Below the pieces are notes generated by a model, which saw only the letters and a list, made by a program, of their open reading frames with translations, had not been told where the DNA came from and did not search any database. From Eledone cirrhosa (taxonomy: Eukaryota), in NCBI GenBank assembly GCA_964016885.1, contig OZ024741.1, positions 292,578,001 through 292,642,000 on the forward strand: 64,000 nt of DNA, written 5' to 3'. Of the stretch, positions 2,452 to 61,654 are shown one piece after another; the first letter of the stretch is position 1; each line of letters begins with the position of its first letter. Position numbers and translations under genes: made by a program.

Positions 2452-2703
2452 AATATATATATATATGTATCTGTGTGTATGTATATGTATGTATATATAT
2501 ATGTATGTATATATATACGTATATATATGTATGTATATGTATATATATGTATGTATATGTACATATATATGTATGTATATATAAATGTATGTATGTATAT
2601 GTATGTATGTATGTATATGTATGTATATATATATATGTATGTATATGTATGTATATATATGTATGTATATGTATGTATGTATGTATGTTTTTGTATGCGT
2701 ATG

Positions 2704-2734
<31 letters not shown>

Positions 2735-2753
2735 GTATGTATATATATGTATA

Positions 2754-3323
2754 TAACTGTATCCCAGTACAACCTGTCTCATGGTCGGGTCGTTGGCGAC
2801 TAAACTGGCAACCCCACCAAGGTTTCTTGGGTGACTTTGGACATCCTGCAGTACTAAAAACAAAACCTGTCAAAGGGCAAAGGAGCTCTTCGAGTCAATG
2901 GCCATCCAAAATCACTGGGAGAGATGACCCCTTAGCCTTTGTCAAGGCAGAATTCTAGGAGAAGGAAAACTCTGATATAACACCTGCAACCCTGATGGTA
3001 TCCAATGATGTTGACTTGTTCTTTTTGATAAGTATATTCTTGGTTAAGAGAGTGGGACTGGCTTTGTGCAGTGCCTTTGCTCACTATAAAAGCTTCACGG
3101 CACAGGCATTGCTTTATATCTGGAGATCTCTCTGCACTTGTCATCACATGGTACCATGGGCCCAGCACTATGTGTCAGTAATTGTCACAAGTGTAGTGTT
3201 TGTACCAGAGTTTTCAAGTCGCTGGCTGGACTAAAAAGTCACACTCGTTTAGCGCATCGGTAGGAGTTCTCCTACATGGATATAAGGTAGTTTCCGTACT
3301 CGAAAACGAGTTGGCAGCCACCA
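2754..3323 (+). mobile_element. Non-autonomous RTE-5'UTR-like element, family A copy 1
   Basis: Near-identical inverted copy at 22401..22983. Carries the RTE-type 5'UTR motif ctaggagaaggaaaactctga and a 3' hairpin ACTCG-AAAA-CGAGT. Both ends abut (TA)n. Confidence 0.8.
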
Positions 3324-3569
3324 TATATATGTATATATATATGTATGTATATGTATTTATATATACACATACACAATTGCACTTTTATTATGTTGCTGTG
3401 ATTTAGGCAGTGGAGTGTAAGAGCTTAGATGTTCTAAAGTTTTAAAGTCAATTAACTCTCTCTAGTAGCCATTGCAAGGTTTCCCAAGTATAGAACAATG
3501 CCACTGTTGAAGATGTCACAATTTATTTCACTCACTAGGTAGTCAGTCTAGTAAAGACAGACTTAACAC

Positions 3570-7016: not shown

Positions 7017-7049
7017 TGCCTGATGAGCCGTATGATAGAGAAACGTTGT

Positions 7050-18217: not shown

Positions 18218-18610
18218 AAATGAACACAAATACACACAGACACCCGGATGTGGCGCATGCGCAAACTAAGAACACAACACACACACAGAAACAAAATGGC
18301 GTAGGATAGAAGAAAGGAAAGGCACAGAAACAAAGCAAGGAATCCCCAGTCACTGAAGAGGTCACAGAGTGTGTGACGAAAGGACTATGACTATATATAA
18401 ACAACTATCTGGTTGTGGAACCAACCAACCAGAAATTTATAGGTTTGTAAAGTTGTAAATTTATAAATTTATAAATATATAATAAATTGAAGTGAAAGCA
18501 ACTGGTGCGTGTGTTTCTTATTGGCAACATGACCCTCCCAAAGTATAATAATATCGGTTTCAACACACGATTTCAGATAAAGAATCTTGTTAAACAAATT
18601 CAGAAACGAA
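18218..18610 (+). mobile_element. Hammerhead-bearing non-coding element, family B copy 1
   Basis: Colinear with the reverse complement of 52642..53082 (GCATGCGCA, AAAATGGCGTAG, hammerhead, 3' block atgaccctccc.aagtata..cacacgatttca); ends in (TA)n. Confidence 0.75.
18348..18392 (+). ncRNA. Type I hammerhead ribozyme (family B)
   Basis: AGTCA CTGAAGA g GTCACA gagtg TGTGAC GAAA ggac TA TGACT: perfect 5-bp stem I, 6-bp stem II, intact core. Confidence 0.85.
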
Positions 18611-20424: not shown

Positions 20425-20908
20425 GGGTGTGAGAGGTGTATTATGGGAGTATAGTGGTTAAGAGGTGTCATAACACCCACCCACTTCTATCCCTTTACAC
20501 TGTAGAGTTATGTTGGTATCACAACAAAAAAAACATCCAGCCCACATTGTTAAGTGGTTGTGTGTCATGATAAAAAAGCATCCAGCCCACATTGTAAATG
20601 TGGTTGGTATTGGGAAGGGCACCCAGCCATAGAAACCTAGCCAGAAACAGTTCTGTATGAGCAAGACATGGTCACTGGACCCGACTTGCCTCTCATGGAA
20701 CAACCCATCTAACCCATGCCAGCATAGAAAATGGATGTTAAATGATGACATATATATACATATATATATATACATATATGTATATATATATATACATATA
20801 TGTATATATATATATACATATATCTATATATATATATATACACATATATACACATATATATACATATATGTATATATATATATATACGCATATATATATA
20901 TATATATA

Positions 20909-21885
20909 ATAGTGGACAGCTTCCGTTACCTGGGTGACAAAATCAGCAGTGGGGGAGGGTGCTCTGAAAGTACAGTAGCTAGAGTCAGAACTGGGCGGAA
21001 AAAGTTCAGAGAGCTTATACCACTATTAGCCGCTAAAGGGTTCTCCCTAAAAAATGAAAGGCAGGTTGTACGATGCCTGCATACGAACAGCAATGTTGCA
21101 TGGCAGTGAGACCTGGGCATTGTGTGCAGAGGATATACGCAGACTAGAGAGAAACGAAGCTTGCATGCTCCGCTGGATGTGTAATAGCAATATACATGAA
21201 CGACAAAGCATAAACGAACTAAGGAAAAAATTAGAAATAAGAGGGATCAGATGTTGTTTACTAGAGAGAGGGCTACGTTGGTATGGTCACGTGATGCGCA
21301 TGAAGGACGATAGCTGTATAACAAAGTGCAGGGCAATAAAGATAGATGGTAGTCACGGAATAGGCAGACCCAGAAAAACCTGGGACGAGCTGATAAACTC
21401 CGACCTCACACACTTACACCTCACCAAGACAATGTCACTGGACCGAGACCTTCGGCGGTACTCAGTAATAGAGAAGACCCGCCTTACCTAAATACAAAGT
21501 AAAACCTACTACAGTCAGTAGGCATCTCTAACAAAATACACCCCCGTCCCACCACGCCCACCCCATCCACACCGCCCCCTTCTATGTAAAGTTATGTTGG
21601 TGCCACACCATCCTGGCCGAAACAAATGAGGTCGTGTAGGTGTCACGACAAAAAAACACACAGTCCACGCTGTAATGTGGCCGTGTAGGCAACACGGTAA
21701 AAACCTCCCAGACACACACTGTAAATGTGGTTGGTGTTAGGAAGGGCATCCAACTGTAGAAAACCTGCCAGACAGTCCTATGCGAGCAAGACAATCACTC
21801 TTGCCTCAAGTGGGAAAACCCCCGTCCAAACCCATGCAAGCGTGGAACACGGACGTTAAACATTGATGATGATGATGATGATGAT
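20909..21885 (+). mobile_element. 5'-truncated RTE LINE (ORF2 C-terminus, 3'UTR, (GAT)n)
   Basis: [15 protein letters not shown], frameshift near 21050, then LHGSETW..RWYGHVMR..GRPRKTW; stop at 21491; begins in (TA)n. Confidence 0.92.
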
Positions 21886-22356
21886 ATTTCGTTTCATTCT
21901 ATTCCATTTATCGTTTTCGGTGCGCCCAGCCGACTAAACTCACTCGATATGCAGATTAGGCTGCTCAGCCGTTAATATGCATAAGGAAAGTATATACTTT
22001 CAGACGTTCAACCATCTGGCAGGAAGGTATACGGTGCTGACGATACCTAATAAGCTTGAAGCTAGTACATCTTTCCTGTGTCAGTGTTGAACAAAAAGGT
22101 GACGTGGTTGCCTAAACACTGTACGGCGTAATTCGGGCTGTTTGTTTGTTTACAAACAAACAAACCGAGCATTATAATAAATGTTCGGTAAACCGATACG
22201 TGCATATATATGTGTGTGCATGTATGTATATATATACATACTACTGTACGTCTGTATATATATATGTATGTACGTATACATACATACATACTTACATTTA
22301 AGTAACTGCCGTACTAAGAGTGAGAAATGAAATTTCGTTTCATTCTATTTCATTTA
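21886..22356 (+). mobile_element. Hammerhead-bearing element, family C copy 1 (446-nt period, terminal redundancy)
   Basis: atttcgtttcattctatt.cattta occurs at both 21886 and 22332. Second copy at 28386..28822. Hammerhead at 22031..22071 has GAAA changed to GAAG. Confidence 0.85.
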
Positions 22357-22400
22357 TATATATACATATGTATATATACATATATGTATATGTATATATA

Positions 22401-22983
22401 TGGTGGCTGCCAACTCGTTTTCGAGTACGGCCACTACTTTATATCCATGTAGAACCCCTACCGATGCGCTGAACGAGTGTGACTTTTTAGTCCAGCCAGC
22501 GACTTGAAAACTCTGGTACAAACAATACACTTGTGACAATTATTGACACATAGTGCTGGGCCCATGGTACCATGTGATGACAAGTGCAGGGAGATCTCCA
22601 GATATAAAGCAATGCCTGTGCCGTGAAGCTTTTATAGTGAGCAAAGGCACTGCACAAAGCCAGTCCCACTCTCTTAACCAAGATGATATTTACCAAAAAG
22701 AAGAACAAGTCAACATCATTGGATACCATCAGGGTTGCAGGTGTTATATCAGAGTTTTCCTTCTCCTAGAATTCTGCCTTGACAAAGGCTAAGGGGTCAT
22801 CTCTCCCAGTGATTTTGGATGGCTATTGACTCTTAAGAGCTCCTTTGCCCTTTGACAGGTTTTGTTTTTAGTCCTGCAGGATGTCCAAAATCACCCTCCT
22901 CACCAAGAAACCTTGGTGGGGTTGCCAGTTTAGTCGCCAACAACCCGACCATGAGACAGGTTGTACTGGGATACATGTTACCA
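22401..22983 (-). mobile_element. Family A copy 2 (inverted)
   Basis: Reverse complement nearly identical to 2754..3323; (TA)n on both sides. Confidence 0.85.
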
Positions 22984-23500
<517 letters not shown>

Positions 23501-28385: not shown

Positions 28386-28822
28386 ATTTATCGTTTTCGG
28401 TGCGCCCGGCCGACTAACTCACTCGATATGCAAATTAGACTGCTCAGCCATTAATATGCATAAGGAAAGTATATACTTTCAAACGTTCACTCATCTGACA
28501 GAAAGGTATACGGTGCTGACGATTGCTAATAAGCTTGAAACTAGTACATCGTTCCTTTGTCAGTGTTGAACAAAAGGGCGACGATGGTTGCCGAGCACTG
28601 TACGGCATAATTCGGGATGTTTGTTTACAAAAAAAAACGAGCATTATAATAAATGTTCGGTAAACCAATACGTACATATATATATATGTGTGCATGTATG
28701 TATATATATACATACTACTGTGCGTCTGTACACATATATGTATGTAGGTATACATACTTATATTTAGGTATCAGCCGTACTAAGAGTAAGAAATGAAATT
28801 TCGTTTCATCCTTTTCCATTTA
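28386..28822 (+). mobile_element. Family C copy 2
   Basis: Colinear with 21906..22356; TA-rich or (TA)n sequence on both sides; attta at both ends. Confidence 0.85.
28510..28552 (+). ncRNA. Type I hammerhead ribozyme (family C)
   Basis: ACGGTG CTGACGA tt GCT aata AGC tt GAAA CTAG TA CATCGT. Palindromic ACTAGT stem III; stem I extends (ctgacagaaagg/cctttgtcag). Confidence 0.85.
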
Positions 28823-29103
28823 TATATATATATATATATGTTCATATGTTTATATGTGAATATATGCTCATATATATATATATATATATAATCGAAGAAA
28901 TTGAAGAAATAGAAGCAGACCATTAAAATATATATGAGGCTTGTTTACATAATTGCATTTATATACATATATATATATGTATATAAATGTAATCTGAGTT
29001 TTTCGAATATTCATAATAACATTCGATTTGTTTGCAATTATGAAAACAAGTCTCAGTTTTATAGCCATGTCAGTAGAATGAACACTTCATTCTTGCTCTT
29101 GTG

Positions 29104-29183
29104 TTGGCATGTGAACAGAACTGCAGACACTAATGTTTCTGGGTATCACCCTTCATCAGTACAGCTCACTGTTCACCTGCCAA
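29104..29183 (-). ncRNA. Type I hammerhead ribozyme with long stem I (family D)
   Basis: Minus strand: ttggca-g-gtgaaca-gt-gagctgta CTGATGA a GGGT gat ACCC a GAAA cattagtg TC tgcagttc-tgttcac-a-tgccaa. Predicted GUC cleavage between 29126 and 29125. Confidence 0.9.
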
Positions 29184-29232
29184 ACTCTCAGAGCTAGTGA
29201 AAATATATGCTATTTTCAAAAATACACAGTGA

Positions 29233-29331
29233 CTGATCGACCTGATTTGTATATTAGCAGACTGGCTGATCAGTCAGATCTGCATATTAGCAGATCCACT
29301 GATCAGCCAGATTCGCATATCAGCAGACTGG
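29233..29331. repeat. Three 33-bp tandem repeats inside the family D monomer
   Basis: Units start at 29233, 29266 and 29299; the middle unit has the hairpin GATCTGC-atatta-GCAGATC. Confidence 0.85.
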
Positions 29332-29777
29332 CCAGTCAATTTCCTGTGTACGAGCGATAAATGGCTGGCTTAGCCAAATTCAAATAAAAAAGAAAATTTC
29401 ACTCTACATGGCTGAATACAATAAATGTAATCTGAGTTTTTTGAATATTAATAACAACATTCGATTTGTTTGCAATTTTGCAAACAAGCCTCAATTTTAT
29501 AGCCATGTCAGTAGAATGAACCCTTCATTCTTGCTCTTGTGTTGGCATGCGAACAGAACTGCAGACACTGTTTCTTTTTTATATGTATATATATATGTAT
29601 GTTTATATGTGTATATATATGTATGTTTATATGTGTATATATAAGTATGTTTATGTGTGTATATATATGTATGTTTATGTGTGCATACATTTATGTGTGT
29701 ATACATATATGTATGTTTATGTGTGTATATATATATATTTATATATATATATGTATGTTTGTGTGTGTGTGTATATA

Positions 29778-29848
<71 letters not shown>

Positions 29849-43592: not shown

Positions 43593-44326
43593 CAGTGGTT
43601 CTCAACCTTTTTTTGCCAATGGCACACCTTGGAACACATGAAAAAATAGCGGCACACCTAGCTAAATATATATGAAAAATATTTGAATTTTACAAAATAA
43701 AAACATGGCAAGTCATAGACAGCATACAACCGTAGACACAGACTAGTCATAGACGGCATACAACCGTAGACACAGACTAGTCATAGACAGCATACAACCG
43801 TAGACACAGACTAGTCATAGACAGCATACAACCGTAGACACAGACTAGTCATAGACGGCATACAACCGTAGACACAGACTAGTCATAGACGGCATACAAC
43901 CGTAGACACAGACTAGTCATAGACGGCATACAACCGTAGACACAGACTAGTCATAGACGGCATACAACCGTAGACACAGACTAGTCATAGACGGCATACA
44001 ACCGTAGACACAGACTAGTCATAGACGGCATACAACCGTAGACACAGACTAGTCATAGACGGCATACAACCGTAGACACAGACTAGTCATAGACGGCATA
44101 CAACCGTAGACACAGACTAGTCATAGACAGCATACAACCGTAGACACAGACTAGTCATAGACAGCATACAACCGTAGACACAGACTATTCATAGACACAT
44201 AGAATGATTCAAACTAAATAAAGAAAAACACAGCTATGAACTTACTTTCACATTTTCTTAGTGTGCTGTTCAAAATTTCGTAGCACACTTAGGAAGATCT
44301 CGCGTCACACTGGTTGAGAATCACTA
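43593..44326. mobile_element. hAT (Charlie-type) MITE
   Basis: TIR CAGTGGTTCTCAACC / GGTTGAGAATCACTA; 8-bp TSD TCCTAGAG / TCCAAGAG. Confidence 0.88.
43711..44197. repeat. 34-bp minisatellite, 14 full copies plus a partial
   Basis: Unit agtcatagac[a/g]gcatacaaccgtagacacagact; no spacers. Confidence 0.98.
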
Positions 44327-59679: not shown

Positions 59680-60606
59680 TATATCATCTAAACAACCACA
59701 AGGAGACATGTATTTGATGGGCCTATATGTCAATTCACTTATTGTAGTAAGGGTACCTCACTGTAGAAACCGTGCCTAAAAGGGTTGGGAGGACTCTCCA
59801 GTTGCCAATGGCAACAACTTCTCTAGTGTCGATGATCAACATGCTAAATACATCAAGTGCATGCTGTAAGGAGGTGGATGATAGGAATGAGTCAACCCTG
59901 GTTTTGATAAATCCTCTGACTCCTAACTCTACAGAGAAACATGATTCCTTTCATCTGCAGGTTTCACAGAGTTCAACTTTGCCCCTGTACTTCCTTGCCT
60001 TCCTGTTTAATATATCCTTGATGTTCGCCTCCCAAGAGATAATAAGCTCTACCATCTTCACCACCTTCCTTTCTTTGCACCACATGCGCACGCACTCACA
60101 CACACCACCATCATCATTTTTACATCTACCTTTCTGCACTTGCATGGGTTAGACAGGTCCTTCTCAGTACAGCATCTCTCCAATCACTGCATTCCTCTGT
60201 TATCTCCTCTGTGAGTCTCAGAGATTTGAGGGTCAGCTCTCATCCTCTCTGCAGAGGTGATTTTTCAAGATATTTTGTGGGTTTTTGTTAACTAATTTTT
60301 TGTACAAAAGGACTGCAAAATTACTAACTTTAAATTAATATAAAATTCAATAGACACAATACTTTTAGCTATGGTTTTTGCTTCTCCCTAAAGGTTTTAT
60401 TCAAGAAAATTTACAATAGACAATAAAAAGAAAATTTTTTTTAAATAATATTTTCCAACTCTGAGTGCACTGTGCTCTGCCTAAGTCTTCCATGGTCTAC
60501 CTTTAGTATAGCTTCCTTCCACTGGGATTTCTTGGAATTTCTTGACCCAACAATCATCATGCACACACACACACGCGCACGCACACATACACACACACAC
60601 ACACAC

Positions 60607-60638
<32 letters not shown>

Positions 60639-61654
60639 CCATGGGAACTTCTCTACGCTGACGATCTGGTTCTTATAGCAGAATCAGTAGAGGAGCTAGA
60701 GAATAAATTCTGGCTATGGAAACAGCAGTTGGAAGCAATAGGACTGAGAGTGAATCTAGCTAAGACAAAAGTGTTGTTGAGTAGAAAAGAGGACAAAACC
60801 CTGATTCTGTCAGCGAAATGGCCATGTTCGATATGCAGAAAAGGAACTGGCATAGATTCTATAAAATGCACACAATGCAGATCCTGGGTACACAAGAGAT
60901 GTAGCGGGATAGCAGGCAAACTAACAGGTAGGGAGAAATATGTATGCAGTAGATGTACAGGGAAATTAGACAGTAGAAGTCGCACTGATAGACACATTTT
61001 TCAAATGCAAGAGGGCGCTATAGAAGTGGTGGATAGCTTCTGGTACCTAGGAGATCAGATTAGCATGGGAGGAGGGTGTTCCGAGGCCATAGTATCTAGA
61101 ATAAGGACGGGTTGGAAGAAGTTTAGGAAGCTGCTTCCTCTGTTGATGAAGAAGGGTTTCTCCCTGCGTACGAAAGGCCGGTTGTATGATGCCTGTGTGA
61201 GGAGCGCGATGCTGCATGGTAGTGAGACATGGGCAGCAACTGCAGAGGATATGCGACGGCTGGAGAGAAATGAGGCAAGCATGCTCCGTTGGATGTGCAG
61301 TGTAAATGTACGTGAACGACCCAGCATAAATGTGTTGAGAGACAAACTGTGTCTGAGAGGGATAGAATGTAGTGTACGGGAGAGGAGACTGAGGTGGTAT
61401 GGACATGTGATGCGCATGGAGGATGACCGATGGGTGAAGAAGTTCCAGGAATTGCCAGTTGAAGGAAGACATGGTAGAGGTAGACCATGAAAAACATGGG
61501 CGGAGGTGGTGAGAACAGACCTCAGATCATTGAAGCTCACGGTGGAGATGACGAGGGACCGTGACGAGTGGAGAGATGCTGTGCTGAATAAGACCCGTCC
61601 CACCCTTGCAAGCAGGGAAAGCGGACGTAAAATGATGATGATGATGATGATGAT
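60639..61654 (+). mobile_element. 5'-truncated RTE LINE ORF2 with a PHD-like finger in the RT domain
   Basis: PWELLYADDLVL..CSIC..CTQC..H..C..CSRC..FWYLGD..LHGSETW..RWYGH; premature TGA at 61488; (GAT)n tail; (TA)n on both sides. Confidence 0.95.

Follow-up and report, generated by a model that had tools for sequence, protein, structure and literature searches.

A decayed 1.35-unit copy of a high-copy hammerhead repeat with ends that point to Penelope-type priming

Introduction

The insertion at 28983-29575 on the minus strand of the window, the 64-kb stretch of DNA analysed here, most plausibly represents a single decayed copy, 1.35 units long, of a non-autonomous hammerhead repeat that is present in high copy number, a non-LTR retrozyme of a kind already published. 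Judged from the sequence and from public reads, mobilisation of this hammerhead unit by Penelope-like elements (PLEs) is highly probable. That the Penelope-mobilised unit was also copied from a predicted circular RNA is a narrower claim, towards which we lean slightly. Animal non-LTR retrozymes were described by Cervera and de la Peña in 2020 (PMC7229834), and are treated as non-autonomous PLE derivatives by Li, Clavereau and Pollet in 2026 (bioRxiv 10.64898/2026.07.22.740005). The mobiliser of animal retrozymes has so far been argued from co-occurrence and sequence trees. PLEs have been reported in cephalopod genomes (PMC8967140). A search of the literature for a hammerhead, retrozyme or non-autonomous Penelope family in octopuses and other cephalopods found no such family; most subscription papers and Repbase lay outside its scope, and it does not establish absence from print. 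Further invertebrate retrozymes in the supplement of PMC7229834 may include this lineage or its core. In this study, we followed up an earlier note, made from the sequence alone, that had described a retrozyme-like monomer at this locus.

Materials and methods

The insertion and its redundant segments were delimited by self-alignment, flanks and sub-repeats by repeat scans, and the ribozyme by motif search and folding. Nearest-neighbour models handle hammerhead junctions poorly; hence, fold energies are used as leads only. Four of fourteen public sequencing runs (X1, X4, X5 and X12) were aligned to the insertion at 82% likeness; no RNA run was listed among the fourteen. X12 is a reduced-representation library, and X5 carries a second organism label. 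Organism labels C-H accounted for small shares only, outside the four aligned runs. Variants were mapped on the fold for 21 of the 40 variants displayed; those left out were outside the unit frame, together with six that were rare in X1. Copy number was not derived from summed contig depth because overlapping contigs inflate depth. Matches in X4, whose library kind is unspecified, were not taken as expression. A bacterial promoter scan was set aside as irrelevant to an animal host.

Results

Structure of the insertion

The insertion (28983-29575, minus strand) comprises about 1.35 units and has a G+C content of 37%. The unit of 438 nt lies between two GUC sites (29126-29563, minus strand) and is the predicted monomer or circle, with 38% G+C and 69% of its bases paired by folding. 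Self-alignment of the redundant segments, 29575-29421 against 29140-28983, gave 155 bp at 92.4% identity (158 columns, E 2e-62), in agreement with the terminal redundancy of ~150 bp across the predicted cut site that had been proposed. The same alignment bears out the proposed spacing of the GUC sites: the last base of the second GUC is at 29564, a distance of exactly 438 nt from C17 at 29126. The claim of a second partial hammerhead copy needs qualification. Its GUC is present at 29564, but it forms no hammerhead alone, with CUGAUGA and stem II missing. The upstream segment (29421-29575, minus strand) is 5'-truncated and pseudo-LTR-like and has only 6-12 nt before its GUC, with GAAAC lying 3 nt closer to the GUC; the probability of AGAAAC standing before this GUC by chance is about 0.4%. 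In fold models, the upstream GUC and its stem III remnant (29564-29575, minus strand) would be cleavable only with the downstream core. The downstream segment (28983-29140, minus strand) ends 143 nt past the cut, without the tail described below. Since the upstream copy has neither CUGAUGA nor stem II, this insertion of 1.35 units holds a single complete ribozyme. Within the 64-kb window, self-alignment found the 438-nt repeat as a single copy.

Three mutually folding 33-nt sub-repeats occupy 29233-29332 (minus strand), and reads that skip 33 nt indicate that their copy number is variable in the family. A long branched hairpin after the cut site (29386-29532, minus strand; -44.5 kcal/mol with the tail and -25.0 kcal/mol without it) is a candidate RT-recognition domain. 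The insertion is flanked at its 3' end by a (TA)n-type sequence (28960-28982) and at its 5' end by a (TA)n-type microsatellite (29580-29847), and no exact target-site duplication was found at these flanks. The longest purine run is 6 nt. A tRNA gene and pol III A and B boxes were looked for, and none was found.

The two redundant segments differ by nine substitutions over the 143 nt after the cut. Most of the nine are minority letters of one segment, and one is at a CpG. The minority letter at 29029/29467 is common to both segments, and about 88% of X1 depth differs there. A shared minority letter is to be expected if both segments derive from a single template, and it fits copying in one pass, with neutral decay thereafter.

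The hammerhead ribozyme

The motif is a type I hammerhead on the minus strand with a predicted cut at 29126/29125, and it occurred in 0 of 200 block-shuffled windows. Motif search and folding place the core CUGAUGA (C3-A9) at 29153-29159. Folding adds a stem II of 4 bp with a 3-nt loop (29140-29152), then GAAA (29139-29136), a stem III of 3 bp with a 4-nt loop, and C17 at 29126 (together 29126-29139). Stem I is formed by a 5' strand at 29160-29194 and a 3' strand at 29095-29125, all on the minus strand; the twin of the latter, 29563-29533, would close stem I in a monomer or circle. The claim of a complete hammerhead therefore holds for the conserved core letters, which are all present, for the stems and for the cut site, but the motif is not fully canonical because an extra A flanks stem II on both sides (A29152 and A29140), equivalent to an A·A mismatch at its base. 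Stem I is long and interrupted as claimed, but its count of ~21 bp becomes 22 bp for the proximal interrupted part and 27 bp when the distal 5-bp helix is included. Rfam gave no match at gathering score in the window; the 26 weak matches below that score were mostly miRNA models on TA repeats and included no hammerhead family.

Among 40 of the 96 variants, those displayed, the core was altered at 29136 and 29141 only, in 1.3% and 1.7% of X12 reads. The extra As at 29152 and 29140 were not among these 40; the A·A mismatch is thus likely to be shared by the family, with some doubt left by the variants outside the display. PLE hammerheads usually carry an additional base after position 9 and before 10.1, and their stem III is usually a palindrome (PMC4209133). 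Mismatches at 10.1-11.1 or beside the core lower hammerhead activity, with U·U tolerated best (PMC3088659), and a retrozyme of the axolotl retains cleavage and forms circles despite a U·U at the base of its stem II (PMC7229834). A literature search on C11.1/G12 insertions yielded a single paper, which was unrelated.

All 10 nt of the stem III segment are self-complementary, counting two G-U pairs, and its self-duplex has an energy of -8.8 kcal/mol. In the models, the core is paired with this segment (p ~0.99); relative to the minimum free energy (MFE), the active single fold is less favourable by 6.2 kcal/mol. In a modelled tandem, the double hammerhead gains 8 kcal/mol over two single ones but is still 8 kcal/mol above the inactive MFE. 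When the modelled transcript ends short of its own site, the upstream copy becomes the pairing partner of the catalytic strand, and no more than 2.8 kcal/mol is needed for the active fold at the upstream GUC, so that both GUCs could be cut by one shared core. The A·A at the foot of stem II and the predicted self-blocking of the monomer core argue for cleavage that would be weak or dimer-dependent. PLE hammerheads are described as cleaving poorly and as dimers (PMC4209133).

Coding capacity and fold of the unit

The sense strand of the looped unit has no ORF longer than 41 codons, in keeping with the earlier statement that no coding capacity is evident; the antisense maximum is 110 stop-free codons, and the frame from the core AUG stops after 8 codons. 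No PLE domain was found by Pfam in the 149 ORFs of the window.

The unit has a linear MFE of -159.2 kcal/mol, compared with -106.7 kcal/mol for shuffled sequences (z -10.2), and a circular MFE of -154.0 kcal/mol. For the 121-nt hammerhead region, the folding z was -3.99. One of 64 background 438-nt windows was as stable in raw energy, so raw MFE alone is not unique to the unit. The most stable of the 64 sampled, 20563-21000 on the minus strand, reached -159.6 kcal/mol at 34% G+C. Thirteen of the 21 mapped variants are majority letters in X1. Nine of these lie at paired positions, where seven keep or improve the pair and two break it. With all 13 majority letters introduced together, the MFE fell from -159.2 to -172.2 kcal/mol, whereas 200 random controls with 13 changes had a mean of -148.1 and a best value of -166.7 kcal/mol. 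As the majority letters outdo the best random control, the parent element was likely under selection for the fold of the unit, as far as folding models can tell.

The repeat family in public reads

Matches to the insertion were found in 8,712 contigs of X1, 46,848 reads of X12, 126 contigs of X4 and 38 contigs of X5, and most were 90-99% alike. The z-score of the fold and the 8,712 X1 contigs support a highly self-paired, non-coding 438-nt unit that belongs to a repeat family, in line with the earlier description of a retrozyme-like monomer. In X12, 13,217 molecules start at a restriction site that is absent from the window at that place, and single joints are covered by ~100-160 reads each; set against each other, these counts imply on the order of a hundred loci in the reduced library alone. 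The longest aligned contig piece was 305 nt, and none of the listed pieces spans the whole stretch. The tail-to-start junction is crossed by divergent contigs (X1 records 6 and 7 and X5 record 21, among 24 of 9,019 pieces), which have 33, 20 and 10 differences from the window copy, respectively. The cyclic junction is therefore not peculiar to this locus, and the head-to-tail unit junction is common to divergent copies, including those under the second organism label. No shared foreign sequence was found past the loose ends displayed (22 of 984), and the share of X1 running on into unlike sequence was 0. No long RT-coding body common to the copies appeared among those displayed. Pattern scans of viral contigs, metagenome contigs and prokaryote genomes found no copy.

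One X4 contig of 321 nt (record 10, matching 29057-29173) had a depth of 644, compared with 2-54 for the other listed X4 pieces. It carries a family piece with two core changes inside unrelated sequence and could be a defunct piece embedded in some other abundant sequence.

Ends, tail and targets

AT/TA-rich loose ends occurred at 29384 (33 X1 contigs), 29387, 29393, 29396, 29402 and 29421 among the 22 of 984 loose ends displayed. One X4 contig ended at 29421 and one at 29384-29387. The 3' end of the window copy is the equivalent of 29421. The stretch between the two 3'-end positions (29384-29420, minus strand) is likely a Penelope-type optional tail of 34-37 nt and forms the 3' strand of the long hairpin. 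An anole PLE has an optional tail of 30-40 bp between two RT start sites (PMC11167929); the gap of 34-37 nt matches it and fits two RT start sites here.

Summed X1 depth on the folded unit was 583k at +121 to +140, 72k at +161 to +180 and 32k at +181 to +200, and rose again to 297k at +421 to +438 and 337k at +1 to +20, with no step at the cut. Summed contig depth is crude and not a copy number, and its minimum overlaps a length-variable AT-rich stretch. In the RNA direction, the profile is that of a fixed 3' end with 5' truncation. Freely permuted ends, as earlier suggested, are not borne out, with 3' ends clustered and 5' ends variable; clustered 3' ends together with variable 5' ends point to Penelope-type priming at fixed internal sites. 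Both flanks of the window copy are of the (TA)n type, and other copies also have TA-rich loose ends. Seven of the 15 joints displayed (172 in all) are strand-switch joints, all from X12 reads, in which chimeras are possible, and three of the 15 pass over exactly 33 nt, which equals one period of the internal sub-repeats. Inverted truncated copies and microsatellite targets are described traits of PLEs (PMC8557442). The X12 read starts and ends at 29108, 29111, 29546, 29549, 29380, 29395, 29036 and 29477 were rejected as element ends; they are library artefacts because SphI-type and MluCI-type sites lie there.

Other elements of the window

The window is AT-rich DNA with many TA and CA microsatellites and dispersed repeats, and its short repeats may resemble octopus SINEs. 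Two pairs of dispersed repeats, 87-88% identical, are 28386-28866 with 21906-22402 (~500 bp) and 2453-3365 with 22357-23288 (~900 bp); the repeat at 28386-28866 lies ~120 bp from the 3' end of the hammerhead insertion. A young minisatellite at 43711-44204 has a 68-bp period and ~98% identity between units. A Pfam match above the cut-off was obtained in 1 of 149 stop-free frames, a PHD finger at 60546-61487 (plus strand). This is a fragment of a non-LTR retrotransposon ORF in which the end of an RT domain is followed by the PHD finger; the domain order is not that of PLEs, and there is no link to the hammerhead unit. Its nearest Atlas cluster is eukaryotic, and Mollusca is the commonest phylum among the 3 of 262 members with known phylum. 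The host was taken to be an animal and probably a mollusc.

Unrelated to the first, another hammerhead, of the minimal PLE type, lies at 18348-18392 (plus strand), with a predicted cut after 18387. It has CUGAAGA at 18353, an extra G, and stems II, III and I of 6, 2 and 5 bp, respectively, and is followed by a (TA)n tract near 18610. Decayed hammerhead-like cores (CUGAUGA...GAAA) at 7020 (plus), 16303 (plus) and 59671 (minus) are possibly remnants of other PLE families; the core at 7020 continues straight into a (TA)n tract.

Discussion

If the hammerhead unit is Penelope-mobilised and copied from a circle, the cycle would run as follows. Transcripts that are head-to-tail or longer than a unit would be cut at the GUCs by paired hammerheads, which are proposed in view of the self-complementary stem III and of the predicted blocking of the single fold. 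The monomer would be closed into a circle by a host ligase. A Penelope protein would nick AT-rich DNA, with TA microsatellites as targets, and reverse transcription would start at either fixed internal site, approximately +143 and +177 to +180 relative to the cut. The majority of copies would stop early; the window copy would have run 1.35 turns and then decayed neutrally. Counter-evidence to an active retrozyme is the single complete hammerhead at the locus. Li, Clavereau and Pollet require for an active retrozyme no fewer than two successive units that have complete hammerheads at the locus (bioRxiv 2026.07.22.740005), by which the window holds a monomer-class copy and not an active tandem retrozyme.

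A Penelope-mobilised unit would not need a stable circle if it were copied from uncut linear transcripts, partial-tandem or head-to-tail, or by template jumps, with a hammerhead that is weak, protein-assisted or vestigial. We consider this possible, if somewhat unlikely. For the anole PLE, the one such element rebuilt in vitro, cleavage by the hammerhead could be dispensed with, the template was mainly uncut RNA and the hammerhead needed protein (PMC11167929), and one of nine Xenopus retrozyme dimers was cleaved in vitro (bioRxiv 2026.07.22.740005). The A·A at stem II and the predicted self-blocking of the core with the stem III segment favour uncut templates too. The lack of a depth step at the cut site is compatible with an uncut template and with a circle alike. 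However, the core is nearly invariant across ~17,000 reads, apart from the two low-frequency X12 positions among the variants displayed, and such low variation suggests selection on the ribozyme. Moreover, the coral, mussel and axolotl retrozymes tested all accumulate as circles (PMC7229834). Circular and uncut templates are not separated by the present data.

The end signature is that of PLEs, as judged from the 22 of 984 loose ends displayed, and it would also suit a pseudo-LTR remnant of a long autonomous PLE, in which the period of 438 nt would come from two 5'-truncated ends in partial tandem. This reading is improbable. Copies with 10-33 differences from the window copy share the tail-to-start junction, no displayed loose end enters a shared foreign body and the run-on share in X1 is nil, the window ORFs hold no PLE domain, and the whole unit is predicted to fold as one closed structure. 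Scarcely credible is a local event in which 155 bp of an ordinary repeat with a hammerhead were duplicated at the DNA level: an unstable microsatellite setting and internal 33-nt repeats would favour such an event, but the same junction is found at other loci and in the second organism label, and the segment end at 29421 is the 3' end of another copy, in X4. An autonomous PLE was ruled out by the lack of an RT or GIY-YIG ORF, and a plant-type LTR retrozyme by the type I topology, the purine run of 6 nt and the lack of an exact duplication.

The preferred reading, a Penelope-mobilised non-LTR retrozyme, can be extended to a more specific model, which we regard as unlikely. It describes a dispersed, probably molluscan retrozyme with an extra A to either side of stem II throughout the family; in the monomer circle, pairing of the palindromic stem III with the catalytic CUGAUG would keep the ribozyme silent. 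A dimer, or the truncated GUC upstream, would be needed to open the ribozyme, release of a circle would then be within reach of even a 1.35-unit copy, and the insertions would carry the Penelope two-start-site signature. If this were true, that signature would be direct mechanistic evidence of a Penelope RT copying retrozyme circles. Thousands of variant copies with mappable ends allow a direct test of Penelope priming and of circular versus uncut templates, and with the family comes a naturally occurring hammerhead that has an A·A beneath stem II and is predicted to block itself by folding. Without either cleavage or a circle, it would be merely another non-autonomous Penelope repeat.

The unit resembles the described animal non-LTR retrozymes in size (150-450 bp), the absence of coding capacity, a G+C content below 50% and a type I hammerhead. 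Further likenesses are a strongly self-paired unit, a high copy number and many solo or partial copies. In size it is near the mussel family (350-390 bp), and its atypical stem II base recalls axolotl HHR_Amex2, which has U·U. It differs from them in its single complete hammerhead at the locus, where theirs form a tandem of at least two, in its long stem I (22-27 bp) and in the A·A stem II base. Its core is also predicted to be blocked, whereas most animal circles described, some mussel ones excepted, are predicted to be free. Plant LTR retrozymes similarly have two hammerhead sites that bound the monomer, redundant ends and a ribozyme predicted to be blocked in the circle (PMC5680766; see also PMC4918200); unlike the unit described here, they have type III hammerheads, 300-400-bp LTRs, a PBS, a PPT and 4-bp target-site duplications. 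With PLEs that have an endonuclease and their non-autonomous derivatives, such as MRC1 of Chlamydomonas, the insertion shares a partial tandem pseudo-LTR and a hammerhead near the 3' end (PMC8557442; PMC11167929; PMC4209133). Clustered 3' ends, apparently ~35 nt apart among the loose ends displayed, 5' truncation and, unless they are chimeras, strand-switch joints (PMC8557442; PMC11167929) are likewise common to both. Both also have AT/(TA)n targets, lack a target-site duplication that can be discerned and have a stem III that is a palindrome (PMC8557442; PMC11167929; PMC4209133). Compared with the minimal PLE hammerheads described, stem I is much longer here and stem II shorter. Distinct from autonomous PLEs, the 438-nt unit has no ORF for RT or GIY-YIG.
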